DNA from: Laetmonice hystrix
Lineage: Eukaryota
Reading direction: 5' to 3'
Length of the DNA: 64,000 nt
NCBI GenBank assembly: GCA_965235115.1
Contig: OZ249436.1
Span: forward strand, 12,526,001-12,590,000
Shown: one piece after another, positions 1,268 to 33,700 of the stretch
Position numbering within the stretch: position 1 is the first letter of the stretch
How the letters are laid out: each line of letters opens with the position of its first letter
Notes under the pieces: generated by a model
Told to the model about the DNA's origin: nothing
Databases searched by the model: none
Seen by the model: only the letters and a program-made list of their open reading frames with translations
Position numbers and translations under genes: made by a program

Positions 1268-4200
1268 TATAGAAAAGGCGTACAACGTCATTTGCCATTG
1301 TTAACTAAACCTTGACGGCAAACAGTCATTGGGACGACCTGACAACGTTGTCGGACGCGTACAAATGGTCTGTAGGGGACACATATTATATGAGAGTAGA
1401 TGATATATAGACGAGACGTAGGGCCTGCCTCCTGGACAATAAAGGCATGGAAACATGAAACATGAGGCGTCCCTATACTACTGGCTACTCTTGTATACAA
1501 GCAAACGGTACAGGGAGGCCAAACAGTACAGGGAGGAATCGCTACAAGGTATACTGGCTGACCTAGCACCTAAGCGAACACTACAGTGAGGCCCAAGAGT
1601 ACAGTGAGGCCAAATAGTACACTGTGGGGCCAAGCAGTGTGGGAGGCCAACCAGTAGGGTGAGAAGTCCCTACATCTTACCGGCTGGCCTATAGTAGACA
1701 TGCAAACACTACAGTGAGGTTGTGGAAATGAAAGGTACAAGCCAGGAGCATCTAATGTGAAAATCTGGAGAAGATACTGAAATGGGAAGTGTACACATCA
1801 CAAGCATATATCTGTAGCGAACGTACGAGACCTATACGTTTGACAGTTATACATCTGGCCTAAGAATAATAATTTTGGACGGGCGTAGTTTAAGTTGACG
1901 TATCAAAAATGTAGCCATTTTTCGCTTATCATTGCTTTAATCTGTCTCTCGCCACAGGTGCCTGCCAGCCCGGCCAGGTGTACGTGGTGATTCCACCGCT
2001 GGCCGGAAGGCGGCAGTGCAGTCAGCGCCGCCGCCGCCGCTTCAGTGGAGCTGCGCTGCACCCTAGTGTTTTCTGCCTGCAACATCTGTGTGTCATCTTT
2101 CTTTGTTTGTTTGTTACTTGGGGATGGGATATCTAATATAGAAAAGGCGTACAACGTCATTTGCCATTGTTAACAAAACCTTGACGGCAAACAGTCATTG
2201 GGACGACCTGACAACGTTGTTGGACGCTTACAGATGGTCTGTAGGGGACACAGATTAGATGGGAGTAGATGATAGACGAGACGTAGGGCCTGCCTCCTGG
2301 ACAATAAAGGCATGGAAACATGAAACATGAGGCGTCCCTATACTACTGGCTACTCTTGTATACAAGCAAACGGTACAGGGAGGCCAAACAGTACAGGGAG
2401 GAATCGCTACAAGGTATACTGGCTGACCTACCACCCAAGCGAACACTACAGTGAGGCCAAAGAGTACAGTGAGGCCAAATAGTACACTGTGGGGCCAAGC
2501 AGTGTGGGAGGCCAACCAGTAGAGTGAGAAGTCCCTACATCTTACCGGCTGGCCTATAGTAGCCATGCAAACACTACAGTGAGGTAGTGGAAATGAAAGG
2601 TACAGGCGAGGAGCATCTAATGTAAAAGTCTGGAGAACATACTGAAATGGGAAGTGTACACATCACAAGCATATATCTGTAGCGAACGTACGAGACCTAT
2701 ACGTTTGACAGTTATACATCTGGCCTAAGAATAATAATTTTGGGCGGGCGTAGTTTAAGTTGACGTATCAAAAATGTAGCCATTTTTCGCTTATTATTGC
2801 TTTAACCTGTCTCTCGCCACAGGTGCCTGCCAGCCCGGCCAGGTGTACGTGGTGATTCCACCGCTGGCCGGAAGGCGGCAGTGCAGTCAGCGCCGCAGCC
2901 GCTTCAGTGGAGCTGCGCTGCACCCTGGTGTTTTCTGCCTGCAACATCTGTGTGTCATCTTTCTTTCTTTCTTTGTTACTTGGGGATGGGATATCTGATA
3001 TAGAAAAGGCGTACAACGTCATTTGCCATTGTTAACTAAACCTTGACGGCAAACAGTCATTGGGACGACCTGACAACGTTGTTGGACGCTTACAGATGGT
3101 CTGTATAGGGGACACAGATTAGATGGGAGTAGATGATAGACGAGACGTATGGCCTGCCTCCTGGACAATAAAGGCATGGAAACATGAAACATGAGGCGTC
3201 CCTATACTACTGGCTACTCTTGTATACAAGCAAACGGTACAGGGAGGCCAAACAGTACAGGGAGGAATCGCTACAAGGTATACTGGCTGACCTACCACCC
3301 AAGCGAACACTACAGTGAGGCCAAAGAGTACAGTGAGGCCAAATAGTACACTGTGGGGCCAAGCAGTGTGGGAGGCCAACCAGTAGAGTGAGAAGTCCCT
3401 ACATCTTACCGGCTGGCCTATAGTAGCCATGCAAACACTACAGTGAGGTAGTGGAAATGAAAGGTACAGGCGAGGAGCATCTAATGTGAAAATCTGGAGA
3501 AGATACTGAAATGGGAAGTGTACACATCACAAGCATATATCTGTAGCGAACGTACAAGACCTATACGTTTGACAGTTATACATCTGGCCTAAGAATAATA
3601 ATTTTGGGCGGGCGTAGTTTAAGTTGACGTATCAAAAATGTAGCCATTTTTCGCTTATCATTGCTTTAACCTGTCTCTCGCCACAGGTGCCTGCCAGCCC
3701 GGCCAGGTGTACGTGGTGATTCCACCGCTGGCCGGAAGGCGGCAGTGCAGTCAGCGCCGCCGCCGCCGCTTCAGTGGAGCTGCGCTGCACCCTGGTGTTT
3801 TCTGCCTGCAACATCTGTGTGTCATCTTTCTTTGTTTGTTTGTTACTTGGGGATGGGATATCTGATATAGAAAAGGCGTACAACGTCATTTGCCATTGTT
3901 AACTAAACCTTGACGGCAAACAGTCATTGGGACGACCTGACAACGTTGTCGGACGCGTACAAATGGTCTGTAGGGGACACATATTATATGAGAGTAGATG
4001 ATATATAGACGAGACGTAGGGCCTGCCTCCTGGACAATAAAGGCATGGAAACATGAAACATGAGGCGTCCCTATACTACTGGCTACTCTTGTATACAAGC
4101 AAACGGTACAGGGAGGCCAAACAGTACAGGGAGGAATCGCTACAAGGTATACTGGCTGACCTAGCACCTAAGCGAACACTACAGTGAGGCCCAAGAGTAC

Positions 4201-7200
4201 AGTGAGGCCAAATAGTACACTGTGGGGCCAAGCAGTGTGGGAGGCCAACCAGTAGGGTGAGAAGTCCCTACATCTTACCGGCTGGCCTATAGTAGACATG
4301 CAAACACTACAGTGAGGTTGTGGAAATGAAAGGTACAAGCCAGGAGCATCTAATGTGAAAATCTGGAGAAGATACTGAAATGGGAAGTGTACACATCACA
4401 AGCATATATCTGTAGCGAACGTACGAGACCTATACGTTTGACAGTTATACATCTGGCCTAAGAATAATAATTTTGGACGGGCGTAGTTTAAGTTGACGTA
4501 TCAAAAATGTAGCCATTTTTCGCTTATCATTGCTTTAATCTGTCTCTCGCCACAGGTGCCTGCCAGCCCGGCCAGGTGTACGTGGTGATTCCACCGCTGG
4601 CCGGAAGGCGGCAGTGCAGTCAGCGCCGCCGCCGCCGCTTCAGTGGAGCTGCGCTGCACCCTAGTGTTTTCTGCCTGCAACATCTGTGTGTCATCTTTCT
4701 TTGTTTGTTTGTTACTTGGGGATGGGATATCTAATATAGAAAAGGCGTACAACGTCATTTGCCATTGTTAACAAAACCTTGACGGCAAACAGTCATTGGG
4801 ACGACCTGACAACGTTGTTGGACGCTTACAGATGGTCTGTAGGGGACACAGATTAGATGGGAGTAGATGATAGACGAGACGTAGGGCCTGCCTCCTGGAC
4901 AATAAAGGCATGGAAACATGAAACATGAGGCGTCCCTATACTACTGGCTACTCTTGTATACAAGCAAACGGTACAGGGAGGCCAAACAGTACAGGGAGGA
5001 ATCGCTACAAGGTATACTGGCTGACCTACCACCCAAGCGAACACTACAGTGAGGCCAAAGAGTACAGTGAGGCCAAATAGTACACTGTGGGGCCAAGCAG
5101 TGTGGGAGGCCAACCAGTAGAGTGAGAAGTCCCTACATCTTACCGGCTGGCCTATAGTAGCCATGCAAACACTACAGTGAGGTAGTGGAAATGAAAGGTA
5201 CAGGCGAGGAGCATCTAATGTAAAAGTCTGGAGAACATACTGAAATGGGAAGTGTACACATCACAAGCATATATCTGTAGCGAACGTACGAGACCTATAC
5301 GTTTGACAGTTATACATCTGGCCTAAGAATAATAATTTTGGGCGGGCGTAGTTTAAGTTGACGTATCAAAAATGTAGCCATTTTTCGCTTATCATTGCTT
5401 TAACCTGTCTCTCGCCACAGGTGCCTGCCAGCCCGGCCAGGTGTACGTGGTGATTCCACCGCTGGCCGGAAGGCGGCAGTGCAGTCAGCGCCGCCGCCGC
5501 CGCTTCAGTGGAGCTGCGCTGCACCCTGGTGTTTTCTGCCTGCAACATCTGTGTGTCATCTTTCTTTGTTTGTTTGTTACTTGGGGATGGGATATCTGAT
5601 ATAGAAAAGGCGTACAACGTCATTTGCCATTGTTAACTAAACCTTGACGGCAAACAGTCATTGGGACGACCTGACAACGTTGTTGGACGCTTACAGATGG
5701 TCTGTAGGGGACACAGATTAGATGGGAGTAGATGATAGACGAGACGTATGGCCTGCCTCCTGGAGAATGAAGGCACGGAAACATGAAACATAAGGCGTCC
5801 CTATACTACTGGCTACTCTTGTATACAAGCAAACGGTACAGGGAGGCCAAACAGTACAGGGAGGACTCGCTACAAGGTATACTGGCTGACCTACCTCCCA
5901 AGCGAACACTACAGTGAGGCCAAAGAGTACATTGAGGCCAAATAGTACACTGTGGGGCCAAGCAGTGTGGGAGGCCAACCAGTAGAGTGAGAAGTCCCTA
6001 CATCTTACCGGCTGGCCTATAGTAGCCATGCAAACACTACAGTGAGGTAGTGGAAATGAAAGGTACAGGCGAGGAGCATCTAATGTAAAAGTCTGGAGAA
6101 CATACTGAAATGGGAAGTGTACACATCACAAGCATATATCTGTAGCGAACGTACGAGACCTATACGTTTGACAGTTATACATCTGGCCTAAGAATAATAA
6201 TTTTGGGTGGGCGTAGTTTAAGTTGACGTATCAAAAATGTAGCCATTTTCGCTTATCATTGCTTTAACCTGTCTCTCGCCACAGGTGCCTGCCAGCCCGG
6301 CCAGGTGTACGTGGTGATTCCACCGCTGGCCGGAAGGCGGCAGTGCAGTCAGCGTCGCCGCCGCTTCAGTGGAGCTGCGCTGCACCCTGGTGTTTTCTGC
6401 CTGCAACATCTGTGTGTCATCTTTCTTTCTTTGTTTGTTACTTGGGGATGGGATATCTGATATAGAAAAGGCGTACAACGTCATTTGCCATTGTTAACTA
6501 AACCTTGACGGCAAACAGTCATTGGGACGACCTGACAACGTTGTCGGACGCGTACAAATGGTCTGTAGGGGACACAGATTATATGAGAGTAGATGATATA
6601 TAGACGAGACGTAGGGCCTGCCTCCTGGACAATAAAGGCATGGAAACATGAAACATAAGGCGTCCCTATACTACTGGCTACTCTTGTATACAAGCAAACG
6701 GTACAGGGAGGCCAAACAGTACAGGGAGGACTCGCTACAAGGTATACTGGCTGACCTACCTCCCAAGCGAACACTACAGTGAGGCCAAAGAGTACATTGA
6801 GGCCAAATAGTACACTGTGGGGCCAAGCAGTGTGGGAGGCCAACCAGTAGGGTGAGAAGTCCCTACATCTTACCGGCTGGCCTATAGTAGACATGCAAAC
6901 ACTACAGTGAGGTTGTGGAAATGAAAGGTACAAGCCAGGAGCATCTAATGTGAAAATCTGGAGAAGATACTGAAATGGGAAGTGTACACATCACAAGCAT
7001 ATATCTGTAGCGAACGTACGAGACCTATACGTTTGACAGTTATACATCTGGCCTAAGAATAATAATTTTGGACGGGCGTAGTTTAAGTTGACGTATCAAA
7101 AATGTAGCCATTTTTCGCTTATCATTGCTTTAATCTGTCTCTCGCCACAGGTGCCTGCCAGCCCGGCCAGGTGTACGTGGTGATTCCACCGCTGGCCGGA

Positions 7201-13200: not shown

Positions 13201-14444
13201 TTTAACCTGTCTCTCGCCACAGGTGCCTGCCAGCCCGGCCAGGTGTACGTGGTGATTCCACCGCTGGCCGGAAGGCGGCAGTGCAGTCAGCGCCGCCGCC
13301 GCCGCTTCAGTGGAGCTGCGCTGCACCCTGGTGTTTTCTGCCTGCAACATCTGTGTGTCATCTTTCTTTGTTTGTTTGTTACTTGGGGATGGGATATCTG
13401 ATATAGAAAAGGCGTACAACGTCATTTGCCATTGTTAACTAAACCTTGACGGCAAACAGTCATTGGGACGACCTGACAACGTTGTTGGACGCTTACAGAT
13501 GGTCTGTAGGGGACACAGATTAGATGGGAGTAGATGATAGACGAGACGTATGGCCTGCCTCCTGGAGAATGAAGGCACGGAAACATGAAACATAAGGCGT
13601 CCCTATACTACTGGCTACTCTTGTATACAAGCAAACGGTACAGGGAGGCCAAACAGTACAGGGAGGACTCGCTACAAGGTATACTGGCTGACCTAGCTCC
13701 CAAGCGAACACTACAGTGAGGCCAAAGAGTACATTGAGGCCAAATAGTACACTGTGGGGCCAAGCAGTGTGGGAGGCCAACCAGTAGAGTGAGAAGTCCC
13801 TACATCTTACCGGCTGGCCTATAGTAGCCATGCAAACACTACAGTGAGGTAGTGGAAATGAAAGGTACAGGCGAGGAGCATCTAATGTAAAAGTCTGGAG
13901 AACATACTGAAATGGGAAGTGTACACATCACAAGCATATATCTGTAGCGAACGTACGAGACCTATACGTTTGACAGTTATACATCTGGCCTAAGAATAAT
14001 AATTTTGGGTGGGCGTAGTTTAAGTTGACGTATCAAAAATGTAGCCATTTTTCGCTTATCATTGCTTTAACCTGTCTCTCGCCACAGGTGCCTGCCAGCC
14101 CGGCCAGGTGTACGTGGTGATTCCACCGCTGGCCGGAAGGCGGCAGTGCAGTCAGCGTCGCCGCCGCTTCAGTGGAGCTGCGCTGCACCCTGGTGTTTTC
14201 TGCCTGCAACATCTGTGTGTCATCTTTCTTTGTTTGTTTGTTACTTGGGGATGGGATATCTGATATAGAAAAGGCGTACAACGTCATTTGCCATTGTTAA
14301 CTAAACCATGACGGCAAACAGTCATTGGGACGACCTGACAACGTTGTTGGACGCTTACAGATGGTCTGTAGGGGACACAGATTATATGAGAGTAGATGAT
14401 ATATAGACGAGACGTAGGGCCTGCCTCCTGGACAATAAAGGCAT

Positions 14445-14546
14445 GTAAGGGTATCACACTGTTGCGAGAGGGGATATCTGGATAACCGCGAGGCGAAGCC
14501 GAGAGGTTATTCAGATATCCACGCGAGCAACAGTGTGATACCATAC
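14445..14546 (+). other. ~100-nt terminal fold-back hairpin of the insertion with GCGAAGC tip (also at +7492 and +14984)
   Basis: GGTATCACACTGTTGC / GCAACAGTGTGATACC and GGATATCTGGATAACC / GGTTATTCAGATATCC arms; tip GGC-GAA-GCC (GCGAAGC at 14493-14499). Confidence 0.93.
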
Positions 14547-14563
14547 GTATACACCAAGGCGTA

Positions 14564-14720
14564 CCGAGCAGTGGGATATTTCCGAAGATATCACACTCTC
14601 GTCACGGCTCCCTGGTCACATATCACACTCTCGTCACGGCTCTCTGGCCACATAACACACTGCAGACGCTTCCGATCCCGAGCAGTGTAACATTGCCGAA
14701 GATATCACACTCTCGTCACA
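14564..14720 (+). repeat. Internal direct repeats of the insertion built on ATATCACACTCTCGTCAC
   Basis: ATATCACACTCTCGTCAC at 14588, 14620 and 14702, with a degenerate ATAACACACT at 14652. A ~43-bp block CCGAGCAGTG...CCGAAGATATCACACTCTCGTCAC occurs twice. Confidence 0.9.
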
Positions 14721-14833
14721 CTTCGCTGGGCACAAGCGATCGGCCCCTCGTTCCACTTGGACGTGGTGGACACGAGTCCTGCTCGATTAGTTTCCATTTT
14801 TAAACACCCGGTCAACGTGTCAACATAACATTA

Positions 14834-15075
14834 GTGGCAGACCATTTAATAGCGGGGGAGGGGTATGGTTTTTTCGTTAAAAAAAGTTGGTTGCCAAGTT
14901 GACCCCCCAAAAATAGTTTGTTACCAAATATACATGTGTGAAATAAAATAGTTTGTTCAGCAATGTGTGTGAAAAAAAGAGATTGTTTATTTATGTTTAT
15001 TGTTTTGTTGCAAGTATAAAAAGTTTGGTCAGAAAGAAAAACCATACCCTCCCCCGCTATTAAATGGTCTGCCCC
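14834..15075. mobile_element. 242-bp MITE of PIF/Harbinger (Tourist-like) type nested in insertion copy 1
   Basis: ~40-bp TIRs GTGGCAGACCATTTAATAGCGGGGGAGGGGTATGGTTTTT / AAAAACCATACCCTCCCCCGCTATTAAATGGTCTGCCCC, flanked by TTA on both sides (14831-14833, 15076-15078), with an AT-rich interior. Confidence 0.88.
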
Positions 15076-15659
15076 TTAGGTGGAATGAGGGACGCTGAAG
15101 CAGAATACCACAGCGTTCTCTATGATCCACTGAGGTGGCCCCGTTGACAACTGCAGGGGGCTCGGCGGTATCTGTGCGGCAGTATTAATTGTGGGAGTTG
15201 CGGCCGAAGCTGCCCGGCATGAGTTTTTCCCTCTATTTTCTTCTTTCTTTAATAGTAAATTCGGAATTATTTGGACAATTACGTTCTCTCGGCACTGAAC
15301 CGCGTCGCTTTGTTTGTACATCTCCAGCTCAGTCGTTCATAGGGGGCGCTGTTTTTTGAGGTCACAAAAAGTGGCCTATACATGTAATTGTATATGCCCC
15401 TATTCTTGTTAAAAACAAAAAAGACTAGAATCCATTCTACTATTCTTGCTGAAGGTCGCATGGGAGACCCTTTCCGTTGTCCTTAATGGTGCCCTTCTGT
15501 TTATTTTTAAGGGATTTTTTTTAAGTACATGAAATCATTATTCTGCCCAAGTACATAATATCATTATTCATTGATAATATGTCGTATGACAGCTCACTTC
15601 GAGAGAAAACAACGAGAAAATCGAGGTGTTTTCTCGAGAGAGAAAAAACAAAACCGAGA

Positions 15660-15710
15660 GGTGCTATCGATATAGGCCCGAGCGAAGCGAGGGCGTATAT
15701 CGATAGCACC
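15660..15710 (+). other. Sub-terminal hairpin of the insertion with GCGAAGC tip (also at +7492 and +14984)
   Basis: Perfect 15-bp arms GGTGCTATCGATATA / TATATCGATAGCACC; inner GCCC-GA-GCGAAGC-GA-GGGC. Confidence 0.93.
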
Positions 15711-15726
15711 GCGAGGATAGGTAGGC

Positions 15727-15799
15727 GTCGCTGTGGCCGAAAAGGTAACAGCGCTGGACGGTGATGCCGCCGTGGTGGGTTCGAATCCTGCCGACGGCA
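15727..15799 (+). ncRNA. 73-nt tRNA-like element / Pol III type-2 promoter (not a canonical tRNA), copy 1
   Basis: GTCGCTG TGGCCGAAAAGGTA (A-box-like) ... GTGGG TTCGAAT CCTGC (T-arm, B-box GGTTCGAATCC) CGACGGC A. The acceptor stem pairs 6/7 counting G-U; the anticodon arm pairs poorly. Confidence 0.7.
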
Positions 15800-18700
15800 A
15801 ACACCGTCCAAAGGCGATATGCGTATCGCCATGGGGGCCAGAATATCCCACGGCCCCATGGTGTATACGGAAACATGAAACATGAGGCGTCCCTATACTA
15901 CTGGCTACTCTTGTATACAAGCAAACGGTACAGGGAGGCCAAACAGTACAGGGAGGAATCGCTACAAGGTATACTGGCTGACCTAGCACCTAAGCGAACA
16001 CTACAGTGAGGCCCAAGAGTACAGTGAGGCCAAATAGTACACTGTGGGGCCAAGCAGTGTGGGAGGCCAACCAGTAGGGTGAGAAGTCCCTACATCTTAC
16101 CGGCTGGCCTATAGTAGACATGCAAACACTACAGTGAGGTTGTGGAAATGAAAGGTACAAGCCAGGAGCATCTAATGTGAAAATCTGGAGAAGATACTGA
16201 AATGGGAAGTGTACACATCACAAGCATATATCTGTAGCGAACGTACGAGACCTATACGTTTGACAGTTATACATCTGGCCTAAGAATAATAATTTTGGAC
16301 GGGCGTAGTTTAAGTTGACGTATCAAAAATGTAGCCATTTTTCGCTTATCATTGCTTTAATCTGTCTCTCGCCACAGGTGCCTGCCAGCCCGGCCAGGTG
16401 TACGTGGTGATTCCACCGCTGGCCGGAAGGCGGCAGTGCAGTCAGCGCCGCCGCCGCCGCTTCAGTGGAGCTGCGCTGCACCCTAGTGTTTTCTGCCTGC
16501 AACATCTGTGTGTCATCTTTCTTTGTTTGTTTGTTACTTGGGGATGGGATATCTAATATAGAAAAGGCGTACAACGTCATTTGCCATTGTTAACTAAACC
16601 TTGACGGCAAACAGTCATTGGGACGACCTGACAACGTTGTTGGACGCTTACAGATGGTCTGTAGGGGACACAGATTAGATGGGAGTACATGATAGACGAG
16701 ACGTATGGCCTGCCTCCTGGACAATAAAGGCATGGAAACATGAAACATGAGGCGTCCCTATACTACTGGCTACTCTTGTATACAAGCAAACGGTACAGGG
16801 AGGCCAAACAGTACAGGGAGGAATCGCTACAAGGTATACTGGCTGACCTACCACCCAAGCGAACACTACAGTGAGGCCAAAGAGTACAGTGAGGCCAAAT
16901 AGTACACTGTGGGGCCAAGCAGTGTGGGAGGCCAACCAGTAGAGTGAGAAGTCCCTACATCTTACCGGCTGGCCTATAGTAGCCATGCAAACACTACAGT
17001 GAGGTAGTGGAAATGAAAGGTACAGGCGAGGAGCATCTAATGTAAAAGTCTGGAGAAGATACTGAAATGGGAAGTGTACACATCACAAGCATATATCTGT
17101 AGCGAACGTACGAGACCTATACGTTTGACAGTTATACATCTGGCCTAAGAATAATAATTTTGGGCGGGCGTAGTTTAAGTTGACGTATCAAAAATGTAGC
17201 CATTTTTCGCTTATCATTGCTTTAACCTGTCTCTCGCCACAGGTGCCTGCCAGCCCGGCCAGGTGTACGTGGTGATTCCACCGCTGGCCGGAAGGCGGCA
17301 GTGCAGTCAGCGCCGCCGCCGCCGCTTCAGTGGAGCTGCGCTGCACCCTGGTGTTTTCTGCCTGCAACATCTGTGTGTCATCTTTCTTTGTTTGTTTGTT
17401 ACTTGGGGATGGGATATCTGATATAGAAAAGGCGTACAACGTCATTTGCCATTGTTAACTAAACCTTGACGGCAAACAGTCATTGGGACGACCTGACAAC
17501 GTTGTCGGACGCGTACAAATGGTCTGTAGGGGACACAGATTATATGAGAGTAGATGATATATAGACGAGACGTAGGGCCTGCCTCCTGGACAATAAAGGC
17601 ATGGAAACATGAAACATGAGGCGTCCCTATACTACTGGCTACTCTTGTATACAAGCAAACGGTACAGGGAGGCCAAACAGTACAGGGAGGAATCGCTACA
17701 AGGTATACTGGCTGACCTAGCACCTAAGCGAACACTACAGTGAGGCCCAAGAGTACAGTGAGGCCAAATAGTACACTGTGGGGCCAAGCAGTGTGGGAGG
17801 CCAACCAGTAGGGTGAGAAGTCCCTACATCTTACCGGCTGGCCTATAGTAGACATGCAAACACTACAGTGAGGTTGTGGAAATGAAAGGTACAAGCCAGG
17901 AGCATCTAATGTGAAAATCTGGAGAAGATACTGAAATGGGAAGTGTACACATCACAAGCATATATCTGTAGCGAACGTACGAGACCTATACGTTTGACAG
18001 TTATACATCTGGCCTAAGAATAATAATTTTGGACGGGCGTAGTTTAAGTTGACGTATCAAAAATGTAGCCATTTTTCGCTTATCATTGCTTTAATCTGTC
18101 TCTCGCCACAGGTGCCTGCCAGCCCGGCCAGGTGTACGTGGTGATTCCACCGCTGGCCGGAAGGCGGCAGTGCAGTCAGCGCCGCCGCCGCCGCTTCAGT
18201 GGAGCTGCGCTGCACCCTAGTGTTTTCTGCCTGCAACATCTGTGTGTCATCTTTCTTTGTTTGTTTGTTACTTGGGGATGGGATATCTAATATAGAAAAG
18301 GCGTACAACGTCATTTGCCATTGTTAACTAAACCTTGACGGCAAACAGTCATTGGGACGACCTGACAACGTTGTTGGACGCTTACAGATGGTCTGTAGGG
18401 GACACAGATTAGATGGGAGTAGATGATAGACGAGACGTATGGCCTGCCTCCTGGACAATAAAGGCATGGAAACATGAAACATGAGGCGTCCCTATACTAC
18501 TGGCTACTCTTGTATACAAGCAAACGGTACAGGGAGGCCAAACAGTACAGGGAGGAATCGCTACAAGGTATACTGGCTGACCTACCACCCAAGCGAACAC
18601 TACAGTGAGGCCAAAGAGTACAGTGAGGCCAAATAGTACACTGTGGGGCCAAGCAGTGTGGGAGGCCAACCAGTAGAGTGAGAAGTCCCTACATCTTACC

Positions 18701-21700: not shown

Positions 21701-22325
21701 ACATCTGTGTGTCATCTTTCTTTGTTTGTTTGTTACTTGGGGATGGGATATCTGATATAGAAAAGGCGTACAACGTCATTTGCCATTGTTAACTAAACCA
21801 TGACGGCAAACAGTCATTGGGACGACCTGACAACGTTGTTGGACGCTTACAGATGGTCTGTAGGGGACACAGATTATATGAGAGTAGATGATATATAGAC
21901 GAGACGTAGGGCCTGCCTCCTGGACAATAAAGGCATGTAAGGGTATCACACTGTTGCGAGAGGGGATATCTGGATAACCGCGAGGCGAAGCCGAGAGGTT
22001 ATTCAGATATCCACGCGAGCAACAGTGTGATACCATACGTATACACCAAGGCGTACCGAGCAGTGGGATATTTCCGAAGATATCACACTCTCGTCACGGC
22101 TCCCTGGTCACATATCACACTCTCGTCACGGCTCTCTGGCCACATAACACACTGCAGACGCTTCCGATCCCGAGCAGTGTAACATTGCCGAAGATATCAC
22201 ACTCTCGTCACACTTCGCTGGGCACAAGCGATCGGCCCCTCGTTCCACTTGGACGTGGTGGACACGAGTCCTGCTCGATTAGTTTCCATTTTTAAACACC
22301 CGGTCAACGTGTCAACATAACATTA

Positions 22326-22567
22326 GTGGCAGACCATTTAATAGCGGGGGAGGGGTATGGTTTTTTCGTTAAAAAAAGTTGGTTGCCAAGTTGACCCCCC
22401 AAAAATAGTTTGTTACCAAATATACATGTGTGAAATAAAATAGTTTGTTCAGCAATGTGTGTGAAAAAAAGAGATTGTTTATTTATGTTTATTGTTTTGT
22501 TGCAAGTATAAAAAGTTTGGTCAGAAAGAAAAACCATACCCTCCCCCGCTATTAAATGGTCTGCCCC
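22326..22567. mobile_element. Same MITE, copy 2
   Basis: Same TIRs and TTA TSD at +7492. Confidence 0.88.
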
Positions 22568-23218
22568 TTAGGTGGAATGAGGGACGCTGAAGCAGAATAC
22601 CACAGCGTTCTCTATGATCCACTGAGGTGGCCCCGTTGACAACTGCAGGGGGCTCGGCGGTATCTGTGCGGCAGTATTAATTGTGGGAGTTGCGGCCGAA
22701 GCTGCCCGGCATGAGTTTTTCCCTCTATTTTCTTCTTTCTTTAATAGTAAATTCGGAATTATTTGGACAATTACGTTCTCTCGGCACTGAACCGCGTCGC
22801 TTTGTTTGTACATCTCCAGCTCAGTCGTTCATAGGGGGCGCTGTTTTTTGAGGTCACAAAAAGTGGCCTATACATGTAATTGTATATGCCCCTATTCTTG
22901 TTAAAAACAAAAAAGACTAGAATCCATTCTACTATTCTTGCTGAAGGTCGCATGGGAGACCCTTTCCGTTGTCCTTAATGGTGCCCTTCTGTTTATTTTT
23001 AAGGGATTTTTTTTAAGTACATGAAATCATTATTCTGCCCAAGTACATAATATCATTATTCATTGATAATATGTCGTATGACAGCTCACTTCGAGAGAAA
23101 ACAACGAGAAAATCGAGGTGTTTTCTCGAGAGAGAAAAAACAAAACCGAGAGGTGCTATCGATATAGGCCCGAGCGAAGCGAGGGCGTATATCGATAGCA
23201 CCGCGAGGATAGGTAGGC

Positions 23219-23291
23219 GTCGCTGTGGCCGAAAAGGTAACAGCGCTGGACGGTGATGCCGCCGTGGTGGGTTCGAATCCTGCCGACGGCA
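23219..23291 (+). ncRNA. tRNA-like element, copy 2
   Basis: Same sequence at +7492. Confidence 0.7.
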
Positions 23292-26200
23292 AACACCGTC
23301 CAAAGGCGATATGCGTATCGCCATGGGGGCCAGAATATCCCACGGCCCCATGGTGTATACGGAAACATGAAACATGAGGCGTCCCTATACTACTGGCTAC
23401 TCTTGTATACAAGCAAACGGTACAGGGAGGCCAAACAGTACAGGGAGGAATCGCTACAAGGTATACTGGCTGACCTAGCACCTAAGCGAACACTACAGTG
23501 AGGCCCAAGAGTACAGTGAGGCCAAATAGTACACTGTGGGGCCAAGCAGTGTGGGAGGCCAACCAGTAGGGTGAGAAGTCCCTACATCTTACCGGCTGGC
23601 CTATAGTAGACATGCAAACACTACAGTGAGGTTGTGGAAATGAAAGGTACAAGCCAGGAGCATCTAATGTGAAAATCTGGAGAAGATACTGAAATGGGAA
23701 GTGTACACATCACAAGCATATATCTGTAGCGAACGTACGAGACCTATACGTTTGACAGTTATACATCTGGCCTAAGAATAATAATTTTGGACGGGCGTAG
23801 TTTAAGTTGACGTATCAAAAATGTAGCCATTTTTCGCTTATCATTGCTTTAATCTGTCTCTCGCCACAGGTGCCTGCCAGCCCGGCCAGGTGTACGTGGT
23901 GATTCCACCGCTGGCCGGAAGGCGGCAGTGCAGTCAGCGCCGCCGCCGCCGCTTCAGTGGAGCTGCGCTGCACCCTAGTGTTTTCTGCCTGCAACATCTG
24001 TGTGTCATCTTTCTTTGTTTGTTTGTTACTTGGGGATGGGATATCTAATATAGAAAAGGCGTACAACGTCATTTGCCATTGTTAACTAAACCTTGACGGC
24101 AAACAGTCATTGGGACGACCTGACAACGTTGTTGGACGCTTACAGATGGTCTGTAGGGGACACAGATTAGATGGGAGTACATGATAGACGAGACGTATGG
24201 CCTGCCTCCTGGACAATAAAGGCATGGAAACATGAAACATGAGGCGTCCCTATACTACTGGCTACTCTTGTATACAAGCAAACGGTACAGGGAGGCCAAA
24301 CAGTACAGGGAGGAATCGCTACAAGGTATACTGGCTGACCTACCACCCAAGCGAACACTACAGTGAGGCCAAAGAGTACAGTGAGGCCAAATAGTACACT
24401 GTGGGGCCAAGCAGTGTGGGAGGCCAACCAGTAGAGTGAGAAGTCCCTACATCTTACCGGCTGGCCTATAGTAGCCATGCAAACACTACAGTGAGGTAGT
24501 GGAAATGAAAGGTACAGGCGAGGAGCATCTAATGTAAAAGTCTGGAGAAGATACTGAAATGGGAAGTGTACACATCACAAGCATATATCTGTAGCGAACG
24601 TACGAGACCTATACGTTTGACAGTTATACATCTGGCCTAAGAATAATAATTTTGGGCGGGCGTAGTTTAAGTTGACGTATCAAAAATGTAGCCATTTTTC
24701 GCTTATCATTGCTTTAACCTGTCTCTCGCCACAGGTGCCTGCCAGCCCGGCCAGGTGTACGTGGTGATTCCACCGCTGGCCGGAAGGCGGCAGTGCAGTC
24801 AGCGCCGCCGCCGCCGCTTCAGTGGAGCTGCGCTGCACCCTGGTGTTTTCTGCCTGCAACATCTGTGTGTCATCTTTCTTTGTTTGTTTGTTACTTGGGG
24901 ATGGGATATCTGATATAGAAAAGGCGTACAACGTCATTTGCCATTGTTAACTAAACCTTGACGGCAAACAGTCATTGGGACGACCTGACAACGTTGTCGG
25001 ACGCGTACAAATGGTCTGTAGGGGACACAGATTATATGAGAGTAGATGATATATAGACGAGACGTAGGGCCTGCCTCCTGGACAATAAAGGCATGGAAAC
25101 ATGAAACATGAGGCGTCCCTATACTACTGGCTACTCTTGTATACAAGCAAACGGTACAGGGAGGCCAAACAGTACAGGGAGGAATCGCTACAAGGTATAC
25201 TGGCTGACCTAGCACCTAAGCGAACACTACAGTGAGGCCCAAGAGTACAGTGAGGCCAAATAGTACACTGTGGGGCCAAGCAGTGTGGGAGGCCAACCAG
25301 TAGGGTGAGAAGTCCCTACATCTTACCGGCTGGCCTATAGTAGACATGCAAACACTACAGTGAGGTTGTGGAAATGAAAGGTACAAGCCAGGAGCATCTA
25401 ATGTGAAAATCTGGAGAAGATACTGAAATGGGAAGTGTACACATCACAAGCATATATCTGTAGCGAACGTACGAGACCTATACGTTTGACAGTTATACAT
25501 CTGGCCTAAGAATAATAATTTTGGACGGGCGTAGTTTAAGTTGACGTATCAAAAATGTAGCCATTTTTCGCTTATCATTGCTTTAATCTGTCTCTCGCCA
25601 CAGGTGCCTGCCAGCCCGGCCAGGTGTACGTGGTGATTCCACCGCTGGCCGGAAGGCGGCAGTGCAGTCAGCGCCGCCGCCGCCGCTTCAGTGGAGCTGC
25701 GCTGCACCCTAGTGTTTTCTGCCTGCAACATCTGTGTGTCATCTTTCTTTGTTTGTTTGTTACTTGGGGATGGGATATCTAATATAGAAAAGGCGTACAA
25801 CGTCATTTGCCATTGTTAACTAAACCTTGACGGCAAACAGTCATTGGGACGACCTGACAACGTTGTTGGACGCTTACAGATGGTCTGTAGGGGACACAGA
25901 TTAGATGGGAGTAGATGATAGACGAGACGTATGGCCTGCCTCCTGGACAATAAAGGCATGGAAACATGAAACATGAGGCGTCCCTATACTACTGGCTACT
26001 CTTGTATACAAGCAAACGGTACAGGGAGGCCAAACAGTACAGGGAGGAATCGCTACAAGGTATACTGGCTGACCTACCACCCAAGCGAACACTACAGTGA
26101 GGCCAAAGAGTACAGTGAGGCCAAATAGTACACTGTGGGGCCAAGCAGTGTGGGAGGCCAACCAGTAGAGTGAGAAGTCCCTACATCTTACCGGCTGGCC

Positions 26201-29200: not shown

Positions 29201-29817
29201 GTGTCATCTTTCTTTGTTTGTTTGTTACTTGGGGATGGGATATCTGATATAGAAAAGGCGTACAACGTCATTTGCCATTGTTAACTAAACCATGACGGCA
29301 AACAGTCATTGGGACGACCTGACAACGTTGTTGGACGCTTACAGATGGTCTGTAGGGGACACAGATTATATGAGAGTAGATGATATATAGACGAGACGTA
29401 GGGCCTGCCTCCTGGACAATAAAGGCATGTAAGGGTATCACACTGTTGCGAGAGGGGATATCTGGATAACCGCGAGGCGAAGCCGAGAGGTTATTCAGAT
29501 ATCCACGCGAGCAACAGTGTGATACCATACGTATACACCAAGGCGTACCGAGCAGTGGGATATTTCCGAAGATATCACACTCTCGTCACGGCTCCCTGGT
29601 CACATATCACACTCTCGTCACGGCTCTCTGGCCACATAACACACTGCAGACGCTTCCGATCCCGAGCAGTGTAACATTGCCGAAGATATCACACTCTCGT
29701 CACACTTCGCTGGGCACAAGCGATCGGCCCCTCGTTCCACTTGGACGTGGTGGACACGAGTCCTGCTCGATTAGTTTCCATTTTTAAACACCCGGTCAAC
29801 GTGTCAACATAACATTA

Positions 29818-30059
29818 GTGGCAGACCATTTAATAGCGGGGGAGGGGTATGGTTTTTTCGTTAAAAAAAGTTGGTTGCCAAGTTGACCCCCCAAAAATAG
29901 TTTGTTACCAAATATACATGTGTGAAATAAAATAGTTTGTTCAGCAATGTGTGTGAAAAAAAGAGATTGTTTATTTATGTTTATTGTTTTGTTGCAAGTA
30001 TAAAAAGTTTGGTCAGAAAGAAAAACCATACCCTCCCCCGCTATTAAATGGTCTGCCCC
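29818..30059. mobile_element. Same MITE, copy 3
   Basis: Same TIRs and TTA TSD at +14984. Confidence 0.88.
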
Positions 30060-30710
30060 TTAGGTGGAATGAGGGACGCTGAAGCAGAATACCACAGCGT
30101 TCTCTATGATCCACTGAGGTGGCCCCGTTGACAACTGCAGGGGGCTCGGCGGTATCTGTGCGGCAGTATTAATTGTGGGAGTTGCGGCCGAAGCTGCCCG
30201 GCATGAGTTTTTCCCTCTATTTTCTTCTTTCTTTAATAGTAAATTCGGAATTATTTGGACAATTACGTTCTCTCGGCACTGAACCGCGTCGCTTTGTTTG
30301 TACATCTCCAGCTCAGTCGTTCATAGGGGGCGCTGTTTTTTGAGGTCACAAAAAGTGGCCTATACATGTAATTGTATATGCCCCTATTCTTGTTAAAAAC
30401 AAAAAAGACTAGAATCCATTCTACTATTCTTGCTGAAGGTCGCATGGGAGACCCTTTCCGTTGTCCTTAATGGTGCCCTTCTGTTTATTTTTAAGGGATT
30501 TTTTTTAAGTACATGAAATCATTATTCTGCCCAAGTACATAATATCATTATTCATTGATAATATGTCGTATGACAGCTCACTTCGAGAGAAAACAACGAG
30601 AAAATCGAGGTGTTTTCTCGAGAGAGAAAAAACAAAACCGAGAGGTGCTATCGATATAGGCCCGAGCGAAGCGAGGGCGTATATCGATAGCACCGCGAGG
30701 ATAGGTAGGC

Positions 30711-30783
30711 GTCGCTGTGGCCGAAAAGGTAACAGCGCTGGACGGTGATGCCGCCGTGGTGGGTTCGAATCCTGCCGACGGCA
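30711..30783 (+). ncRNA. tRNA-like element, copy 3
   Basis: Same sequence at +14984. Confidence 0.7.
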
Positions 30784-33700
30784 AACACCGTCCAAAGGCG
30801 ATATGCGTATCGCCATGGGGGCCAGAATATCCCACGGCCCCATGGTGTATACGGAAACATGAAACATGAGGCGTCCCTATACTACTGGCTACTCTTGTAT
30901 ACAAGCAAACGGTACAGGGAGGCCAAACAGTACAGGGAGGAATCGCTACAAGGTATACTGGCTGACCTAGCACCTAAGCGAACACTACAGTGAGGCCCAA
31001 GAGTACAGTGAGGCCAAATAGTACACTGTGGGGCCAAGCAGTGTGGGAGGCCAACCAGTAGGGTGAGAAGTCCCTACATCTTACCGGCTGGCCTATAGTA
31101 GACATGCAAACACTACAGTGAGGTTGTGGAAATGAAAGGTACAAGCCAGGAGCATCTAATGTGAAAATCTGGAGAAGATACTGAAATGGGAAGTGTACAC
31201 ATCACAAGCATATATCTGTAGCGAACGTACGAGACCTATACGTTTGACAGTTATACATCTGGCCTAAGAATAATAATTTTGGACGGGCGTAGTTTAAGTT
31301 GACGTATCAAAAATGTAGCCATTTTTCGCTTATCATTGCTTTAATCTGTCTCTCGCCACAGGTGCCTGCCAGCCCGGCCAGGTGTACGTGGTGATTCCAC
31401 CGCTGGCCGGAAGGCGGCAGTGCAGTCAGCGCCGCCGCCGCCGCTTCAGTGGAGCTGCGCTGCACCCTGGTGTTTTCTGCCTGCAACATCTGTGTGTCAT
31501 CTTTCTTTGTTTGTTTGTTACTTGGGGATGGGATATCTGATATAGAAAAGGCGTACAACGTCATTTGCCATTGTTAACTAAACCTTGACGGCAAACAGTC
31601 ATTGGGACGACCTGACAACGTTGTCGGACGCGTACAAATGGTCTGTAGGGGACACAGATTATATGAGAGTAGATGATATATAGACGAGACGTAGGGCCTG
31701 CCTCCTGGACAATAAAGGCATGGAAACATGAAACATGAGGCGTCCCTATACTACTGGCTACTCTTGTATACAAGCAAACGGTACAGGGAGGCCAAACAGT
31801 ACAGGGAGGAATCGCTACAAGGTATACTGGCTGACCTAGCACCTAAGCGAACACTACAGTGAGGCCCAAGAGTACAGTGAGGCCAAATAGTACACTGTGG
31901 GGCCAAGCAGTGTGGGAGGCCAACCAGTAGGGTGAGAAGTCCCTACATCTTACCGGCTGGCCTATAGTAGACATGCAAACACTACAGTGAGGTTGTGGAA
32001 ATGAAAGGTACAAGCCAGGAGCATCTAATGTGAAAATCTGGAGAAGATACTGAAATGGGAAGTGTACACATCACAAGCATATATCTGTAGCGAACGTACG
32101 AGACCTATACGTTTGACAGTTATACATCTGGCCTAAGAATAATAATTTTGGACGGGCGTAGTTTAAGTTGACGTATCAAAAATGTAGCCATTTTTCGCTT
32201 ATCATTGCTTTAATCTGTCTCTCGCCACAGGTGCCTGCCAGCCCGGCCAGGTGTACGTGGTGATTCCACCGCTGGCCGGAAGGCGGCAGTGCAGTCAGCG
32301 CCGCCGCCGCCGCTTCAGTGGAGCTGCGCTGCACCCTAGTGTTTTCTGCCTGCAACATCTGTGTGTCATCTTTCTTTGTTTGTTTGTTACTTGGGGATGG
32401 GATATCTAATATAGAAAAGGCGTACAACGTCATTTGCCATTGTTAACTAAACCTTGACGGCAAACAGTCATTGGGACGACCTGACAACGTTGTTGGACGC
32501 TTACAGATGGTCTGTAGGGGACACAGATTAGATGGGAGTACATGATAGACGAGACGTATGGCCTGCCTCCTGGACAATAAAGGCATGGAAACATGAAACA
32601 TGAGGCGTCCCTATACTACTGGCTACTCTTGTATACAAGCAAACGGTACAGGGAGGCCAAACAGTACAGGGAGGAATCGCTACAAGGTATACTGGCTGAC
32701 CTACCACCCAAGCGAACACTACAGTGAGGCCAAAGAGTACAGTGAGGCCAAATAGTACACTGTGGGGCCAAGCAGTGTGGGAGGCCAACCAGTAGAGTGA
32801 GAAGTCCCTACATCTTACCGGCTGGCCTATAGTAGCCATGCAAACACTACAGTGAGGTAGTGGAAATGAAAGGTACAGGCGAGGAGCATCTAATGTAAAA
32901 GTCTGGAGAAGATACTGAAATGGGAAGTGTACACATCACAAGCATATATCTGTAGCGAACGTACGAGACCTATACGTTTGACAGTTATACATCTGGCCTA
33001 AGAATAATAATTTTGGGCGGGCGTAGTTTAAGTTGACGTATCAAAAATGTAGCCATTTTTCGCTTATCATTGCTTTAACCTGTCTCTCGCCACAGGTGCC
33101 TGCCAGCCCGGCCAGGTGTACGTGGTGATTCCACCGCTGGCCGGAAGGCGGCAGTGCAGTCAGCGCCGCCGCCGCCGCTTCAGTGGAGCTGCGCTGCACC
33201 CTGGTGTTTTCTGCCTGCAACATCTGTGTGTCATCTTTCTTTGTTTGTTTGTTACTTGGGGATGGGATATCTGATATAGAAAAGGCGTACAACGTCATTT
33301 GCCATTGTTAACTAAACCTTGACGGCAAACAGTCATTGGGACGACCTGACAACGTTGTCGGACGCGTACAAATGGTCTGTAGGGGACACAGATTATATGA
33401 GAGTAGATGATATATAGACGAGACGTAGGGCCTGCCTCCTGGACAATAAAGGCATGGAAACATGAAACATGAGGCGTCCCTATACTACTGGCTACTCTTG
33501 TATACAAGCAAACGGTACAGGGAGGCCAAACAGTACAGGGAGGAATCGCTACAAGGTATACTGGCTGACCTAGCACCTAAGCGAACACTACAGTGAGGCC
33601 CAAGAGTACAGTGAGGCCAAATAGTACACTGTGGGGCCAAGCAGTGTGGGAGGCCAACCAGTAGGGTGAGAAGTCCCTACATCTTACCGGCTGGCCTATA

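Follow-up and report, generated by a model that had tools for sequence, protein, structure and literature searches.

A 1424-bp non-coding insertion in a satellite array of Laetmonice hystrix houses three hairpins (HP1, HP2 and HP3) that, on the + strand, are predicted to fold with G.A mismatches in their stems and, in HP1 and HP3, with GAA triloops as caps; this folded + strand is probably the working form of the element. The design suggests an element that moves as folded single-stranded DNA, like the cassettes of bacterial integrons. Our preferred reading, to which we assign a probability of roughly one half, is that of a non-autonomous Crypton, with a tyrosine recombinase acting on the folded + strand. 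The Crypton label is putative: it was reached by exclusion, and no recombinase gene was found in or beside any element. Papers cited by PMC number are represented here by the parts of their text available to us, and statements drawn from them hold within those parts.

Results

The window, by which we mean the whole stretch of 64,000 nucleotides analysed here, is a tandem array with a unit length of 865–869 bp, and the 867-bp satellite that forms it is the host of the insertion. Comparison of 66 empty with three filled satellite units, the latter representing one insertion event, gave exact junctions without a target-site duplication and placed the element at 14446–15869 (+); a single G common to both ends makes 14445–15868 equally valid limits. 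The earlier note on this DNA had drawn the 3′ limit at 15715, inside the real one at 15869. The satellite sequence at the target is AT/GG or ATG/GA (the slash marks the insertion point), T is absent from the element ends, and TT is found on neither strand. Contigs from one public sample (runs X1–X3) cover the entire element as well as the empty site, in which 14444 is joined to 15869. Since the three copies in the window are identical, have equal flanks and are spaced by 7492 bp, they go back to a single insertion that was multiplied by the higher-order duplication of the array.

The only symmetry at the element ends is a 3-nt GTA...TAC plus the asymmetric pair of boxes B and B′ (Table 1); symmetric terminal inverted repeats and long direct repeats are absent from the ends. 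The lack of both a duplication and symmetric ends rules out a cut-and-paste MITE as the whole element, and IS607-like insertion at GG is ruled out by the left junction, which is GT. Of 12 element frames submitted to Pfam, none gave a match at the cut-off; the 13 window frames scanned gave two weak matches below it, and the Pfam scan found no recombinase gene in the window.

Over positions 1–64000, the satellite is homogeneous in its 865–869-bp units and carries an 18-bp internal repeat and a steady positive GC skew. Many of its units have, on their − strand, an open frame of 135 aa that matches nothing in Pfam. The insertion-bearing unit has private upstream changes at 14385–14411 (a short AT expansion and substitutions), which hold a low share in the contigs.

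In run X1, the commonest element pieces reach depths of 3,100–4,100, and diverged pieces, some of which continue into other sequence, reach 49–88; related copies of the element thus exist. Run X5 yielded a single 151-nt piece at depth 2. A circle junction was absent from the 15 contig joints listed out of 83, the tables of joints and loose ends being dominated by satellite contigs.

Table 1. Positions of the element copies and of their parts in the window
Feature	Position	Strand	Description
Element copy 1	14446..15869	+	Comparison of empty and filled units
Element copy 2	21938..23361	+	0 differences, same flanks; from 7492-bp higher-order duplication
Element copy 3	29430..30853	+	0 differences; same 7492-bp duplication
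HP1, terminal hairpin	14450..14542	+	Stem of 45 bp capped by a GAA triloop; G.A pairs: two tandem, three single; one G.T
Splint	14527..14559	+	Complement of joined ends: HP1 3′ arm, three linker bases, box B
Box B	14546..14559	+	14 nt; complement of the element's terminal 14 nt
Subterminal repeats	14564..14734	+	57-bp direct repeat (84%), 32-bp tandem repeat (2.3 copies)
Nested MITE	14834..15075		242 bp; ends inverted over ~41 bp; TTA duplication at either side
HP2, short hairpin	15600..15638	+	Two tandem G.A, one single A.G, 5-nt loop
HP3	15654..15716	+	Stem of 30 bp capped by a GAA triloop; G.A pairs: two tandem, one single
tRNA-like segment	15727..15799	+	A-box 15734–15745, B-box 15778–15788, read by eye
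3′ end	15822..15869	+	Local hairpin, 3′ arm contains B′; −14.4 kcal/mol, z −3.4
Box B′	15856..15869	+	Last 14 nt of the element

The tips at 14493 and 15682 both read GCGAAGC; the only other occurrences of this word in the window are in the two duplicated copies. The four GA-type internal-loop pairings quoted in the earlier note were all recovered, as was its third hairpin (15603–15611 paired with 15627–15635), which is without a GAA tip and adds two tandem G.A pairs. Folded as DNA, HP1 reaches −35.2 kcal/mol (z −10.7) and HP3 −22.7 kcal/mol (z −7.0), neither being matched by any of 200 shuffles, and HP2 reaches −7.9 kcal/mol (z −2.5), equalled by 4 of 200. The + strand exceeds the − strand in predicted stability by 6.0 kcal/mol in HP1, 3.7 in HP3 and 1.1 in HP2.

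Across the three hairpins, 17 of the 19 non-Watson–Crick pairs are G.A, arranged as six tandem pairs and five single ones, the remainder being one G.T and one G.G; the nominal p of this enrichment (~1e-11) exaggerates its significance, as the pairs depend on one another and the arms had been selected by eye. All six tandem pairs set C-GA-G against C-GA-G and together consume 12 of the 15 CGAG words on the + strand. The C-GA-G context favours sheared G.A pairs in DNA. The G.G of HP3 seems to be confined to this copy: in most of the contig depth (3409 of 3500 in X1), position 15695 is a C, which restores a pair. Shuffle folds, the template test described below and the G.A counts rule out artefact or chance as the source of the hairpins, and CpG decay as the source of the mismatches is ruled out by the two transversions that a change from TC to GA requires.

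The two GAA-capped stems had been taken to be unrelated; instead, HP1 and HP3 fit one exact template, CGAGAG-N18-CGAG-(G)CGAAG(C)-CGAG-N18-CGCGAG, which was derived from these two hairpins themselves and has six matches in the window and none in 100 shuffles. In register, 44 of their 63 positions are identical, and HP3 is paralogous to HP1's upper part. Among the 18 central pairs, nine are identical and five exchange one Watson–Crick pair for another; the others comprise one further swap when the majority allele is used, one G.T replaced by T-A and two G.A pairs present in HP1 only. Such compensatory differences constitute a covariation test in within-element form. Arm-to-arm conversion could also give matched changes, but it would erase the mismatches, and these persist. 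None of the 40 contig variants listed (there are 29 further ones) hits a tandem G.A pair or a GAA loop. Two single G.A positions of HP1 vary in the contigs, one by G>T (14488) and one in the left-out-letter table (14521), and this may be one arm aligned onto the other.

The unusual stability that had been attributed to d(GCGAAGC) in DNA agrees with the available text of PMC13037366, where d(GCGAAGC) and d(GCGAAAGC) melt at 76.5 °C and an RNA octamer at 39 °C. The same source describes GNA/GAA mini-hairpins as far stabler as DNA than as RNA and places such mini-hairpins at single-stranded phage origins. As far as fold models go, the structured + strand proposed in the earlier note is well supported by the register of the tandem G.A pairs, the compensatory stems, the stability bias, the GAA triloops and the splint.

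The splint was recognized by setting the junction of the joined element ends against the reverse complement of the element, and along this junction it is nearly continuous. Since it spans both ends, the folded + strand would keep them side by side. Boxes B and B′ pair at 13 of 14 positions, with A.A as the sole mismatch, and they also pair in the whole-element fold. Flaws near the joint are exclusively purine–purine, namely a 1x2 loop (14448–14449 against 14543) and the A.A. Read by eye, the junction consists of two inverted boxes (15861–15868 and 14451–14459, one base different) around six bases, and this six-base centre includes the mispaired part and has the element boundary on its edge. 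Tyrosine-recombinase sites are described as inverted repeats flanking a 6–8-bp spacer (PMC3212892); the boxes seen here, which were picked by eye afterwards, are shorter than the 11–13 bp quoted for such sites. In the fold models, the local hairpin at the 3′ end is an alternative to B–B′ pairing.

The remaining parts of the element are of several kinds. The region of subterminal repeats also contains weaker hairpins and three further copies of the end word TATCACAC. The nested MITE, which we take to be PIF/Harbinger-like, is a passenger in the element, and it probably represents a separate abundant family, since its contig depth lies above that of most of the element. The boxes of the tRNA-like segment point out of the element; the Rfam tRNA model gave 20.9 bits (cut-off 29, E 0.53), and nothing in the element reached the Rfam cut-off. 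With a score below the cut-off and no tRNA gene predicted, a functional tRNA gene is ruled out, and the segment is possibly a captured SINE head. Diverged contigs that match 15722–15857 alone end where B′ begins, and they may therefore represent a SINE or a subfamily with a different end. On a circle, the Pol III boxes of this segment, which look intact, would direct reading through the junction.

Viral, metagenome, prokaryote genome and plasmid searches returned no sequence relatives outside the host sample, and a gene-coding, autonomous relative was absent from the viral, metagenome and genome scans. Neither the exact 21-nt tip of HP1 nor the strict two-hairpin template occurs in any viral contig; three metagenome matches to the two-hairpin template all lie within coding DNA, form no stem by eye and were discarded as chance. 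The combination of end word and tip gave 10 matches in prokaryote genomes, none with the layout of the element, and seven loci in viral contigs, of which six belong to one record set and the seventh, L131, is without a stem. An AT-flanked tip pattern gave 16 loci, three of them from the insect-virus-like record set and 13 without a long stem. A pattern of end plus splint, which was one T too long and also missed the known copies, gave six loci, none with a hairpin. BLAST of the element in L029 against phages and of the 5′ part of the window against plasmids returned nothing. A search for DUF3504 in 401 prokaryote genomes, which might have contained stray DNA of the host, gave no match, and its control was equally silent.

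The record set, from IMG/VR, is AT-rich and insect-virus-like, comprises several segments with one BEN-domain frame and is probably, as we assume, a wasp polydnavirus. Two gene-less families in it share the layout of the present element, and L029, read directly, is a complete element. Family 1 has seven copies of ~0.9–1.1 kb. Its terminal hairpin (z −11.8) bears the HP1 tip, which is deleted in one copy; B adjoins this hairpin and B′ lies at the opposite end. A second hairpin, with the tip of HP3, stands on the same strand in all seven copies, and the HP3 tip was not part of the patterns that retrieved the family. Two copies are arranged head to tail (L133, 3464–5450), and their junction agrees with the internal splint. 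The GA strand of family 1 is the less stable one (−50.9 against −53.9 kcal/mol), and its stem contains other kinds of mismatch besides G.A. Family 2 (L148, L156 and L162; ~225 bp) has the end word, the tip and B/B′ as in family 1, the tip being decayed in two copies. When family 1 and family 2 are compared in their outer stems, five of 17 pairs are changed on both sides and 100% of the cells are paired, a covariation that amounts in effect to one comparison, there being only two families. Both families start and end in A (ATAG...GAAAA), and A stands on either side of the copies. The inverted boxes of the junction are not evident in them, and no recombinase frame was recognized around their copies among the listed frames read by eye and the five scanned in Pfam. 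L148 also holds, at 4298–5080, a 780-bp element bounded by long inverted ends, formed by two family 2 left ends that point towards each other.

A shorter, 15-base form of the HP1 tip occurs at no fewer than 124 viral loci, and an ungapped stem test, which gapped stems escape, found no long stem in the best 60 of them. One of these contexts is a contig that encodes a Rep and an S-domain coat protein (L021), with six tandem-G.A/GAA tips on one strand of its non-coding region (2630–3057). Other GCGAAGC words favour the strand of the motif over the opposite one by 36 to 16 in 47 low-GC viral loci and stand at 46 to 49 in 33 high-GC loci, in a comparison that covers 80 of the at least 124 loci with overlaps left in. 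Since the GA/GAA motif is also found in HUH systems (Helitron2 ends and a CRESS-type virus), it marks single-stranded DNA, not one enzyme.

Three further groups of tips were noted. Phage-like contigs (L002/L003 and L065/L066) carry two intergenic tip motifs at a spacing of 867 bases, with a T run downstream of either motif. Several viral contigs (L013, L045, L064, L077, L081 and L131) have a common extended motif, in which two nested tandem-G.A pairs surround the GAA tip and a conserved word lies downstream. Bacterial REP-like hairpins bear a GA/GAA tip in L142 (4984–5032) and L143 (3568–3655).

Discussion

The reading of the element as a non-autonomous Crypton draws on what it has in common with animal Cryptons. 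In the available text of PMC3212892, these have neither terminal repeats nor a target duplication, and the present element likewise shows no target-site duplication and no symmetric inverted or long direct terminal repeats. CryptonA, CryptonI and their derivatives are similar to it in size range and in the existence of gene-less copies (PMC3212892; PMC5753468). They differ in that the parts of these two papers available to us mention neither hairpins nor a splint nor a polarity of the strands and take the circle to be double-stranded, and in that a recombinase frame is absent from the present element. Direct repeats of 4–6 bp mark the ends of fungal and oomycete Cryptons and are given as n.d. 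for the animal groups (PMC3212892); the two ends of the present element have 1 nt in common. The mechanism of animal Cryptons is described as undemonstrated in the text available from PMC13565253. Against the Crypton reading stands the fact that the element is known from one insertion site only. None of the features tested conflicts with animal Cryptons. Hairpins of this kind are also borne by the ends of Eulor5/6 and of coral and insect Cryptons.

If the element is a Crypton, its movement may be pictured as follows. At a replication fork or in a cruciform, the unpaired + strand would form the GAA-capped, G.A-stapled hairpins, and pairing of B with B′ would bring the element ends together on the splint. 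The tyrosine recombinase of an autonomous relative would then carry out one strand exchange between the ends, releasing a single-stranded circle whose junction would already be duplex, with the two inverted boxes around a partly mispaired 6-base spacer. A second single exchange with a double-stranded target, which need have only one G in common, would insert the circle, and replication would complete the process, as in the attC x attI reaction. HP2 and HP3 might serve as additional structure-read sites, used either by the recombinase or in priming the second strand. The attP site of CTX phage is a folded single-strand site comparable to attC.

A functional analogue of such a pathway is attC, in which a strand folds, undergoes one exchange and is then replicated, with an unpaired central spacer (PMC2727003). 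According to the available part of that source, one strand likewise folds into a site that resembles a duplex, with unpaired features at fixed places and a spacer between two boxes, and the crossover needs minimal homology; the analogy is functional only. attC differs from the present site in being prokaryotic and in using extrahelical bases instead of tandem G.A pairs, and the site proposed here is made of both ends and an internal splint.

Among the alternatives, the one that survives best, itself unlikely, is a non-autonomous Helentron or Helitron2 (HINE, DINE-1-like) mobilized by an HUH Rep-helicase, for which B/B′ would be the asymmetric inverted repeats and HP1 the stem-loop, and the G.A pairs and GAA caps would serve the displaced strand. 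The order of parts agrees with that described in PMC4067079, in which an inverted repeat is nested in the terminal repeat, tandem repeats come next, and a second repeat then precedes a stem-loop, with no duplication. In Fusarium Helitron2 (FoHeli), the ends bear GAA-capped hairpins (C-GAA-G) and become joined (PMC5148889), and a reversed layout with a 5′ stem-loop is on record (PMC11417382). The insect-virus-like copies, flanked by A as a TT target would have it and including one head-to-tail pair, would fit as well. The present target, however, known from one site, contains G, with neither TT nor a terminal T, although some Fusarium Helitron2 groups have no established target preference in the text available (PMC5148889). 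Asymmetric inverted repeats and a stem-loop near one end are present, but their sizes fall outside the published ranges: the stem has 45 bp instead of 5–10 bp, and the inner repeat lies ~100 nt from the end instead of 38–60 (PMC4067079), its partner standing at the extreme end. A continuous splint spanning the junction is not described for Helentrons in the parts of these sources available to us. If the partner were a Rep-helicase after all, the element would represent an undescribed, structure-read end for Helitron2 elements. A canonical Helitron (HLE1) is ruled out, as 5′ TC, 3′ CTRR and insertion between A and T are lacking on either strand.

The structure might also matter to an enzyme of another or undescribed kind, such as a Replitron-like or Y1 HUH nuclease, or to a helper single-stranded DNA virus, which we consider quite improbable. 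The six one-stranded HP1 tips in the Rep and coat-protein contig speak for it, as does the strand bias of GCGAAGC words in low-GC viral loci, set against its absence in high-GC ones. Yet the best 60 tip loci show no long stem in the ungapped test, and Replitrons, reported from plants, algae and protists, are defined by short direct terminal repeats (PMC10288648). No such repeats were found by eye at or near both ends, which speaks against a Replitron in the strict sense.

Still less probable is a non-autonomous DIRS-like retroelement, the RNA of which would be the − strand and the single-stranded cDNA the + strand, with the splint as the internal complementary region (ICR) and integration by a DIRS tyrosine recombinase. 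The ICR of DIRS-1 is essential, lies near the right end and complements first the left and then the right extremity, and the DIRS-1 cDNA is single-stranded and antisense (PMC7192593), a polarity that would here make the cDNA the strand with the G.A pairs and GAA caps. On the − strand, the present element indeed has an internal region that matches both extremities, left part first, in inexact form. It differs from DIRS-1 in having no long inverted terminal repeats, no reverse transcriptase, a common core of 1 nt instead of a trinucleotide, and no visible promoter or frame of sense polarity. Moreover, the ICR of DIRS-1 serves as a template of 88 nt without mismatches (PMC7192593), whereas here arm and splint keep fixed mismatches, which copying would erase.

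Least probable of all is that there is no single-stranded stage, the CGAG words being directional duplex protein-binding sites in subterminal inverted repeats or the hairpins acting as RNA: the strands differ by just 1–6 kcal/mol, two other hairpins favour the opposite strand, the element has a tRNA-like promoter and arm-to-arm conversion can yield matched stem changes, but such conversion would wipe out the mismatches, a duplex site needs no exact cross-arm register, which all six tandem pairs nevertheless keep, and GNA mini-hairpin stability is a property of DNA (76.5 °C against 39 °C for the RNA octamer; PMC13037366).

Within the literature covered, we found no account of Crypton ends designed around hairpins, a splint or a single strand; Repbase reports, subscription journals and figures may contain one. 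Returning to the Crypton reading, we tentatively extend it, at less than even odds, to a general proposal: widespread animal tyrosine-recombinase transposons may peel off one strand that folds itself into the recombination site, with the splint providing a duplex core whose spacer is mispaired, and with the tandem G.A pairs and GAA caps setting the strand. The proposed substrate is compact (~115 bases at one end and 14 at the other) and yields single-base predictions of strand, bond and mismatches. If true, the proposal would supply a eukaryotic counterpart of single-strand recombination in integrons and CTX phage, would account for animal Cryptons being without terminal repeats and would provide a sequence-free signature by which many orphan repeats could be classified. 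Moreover, such a recombinase, with next to no demand for homology in the target, would be of interest as a tool, and recombination of folded single-stranded DNA would extend beyond bacteria.
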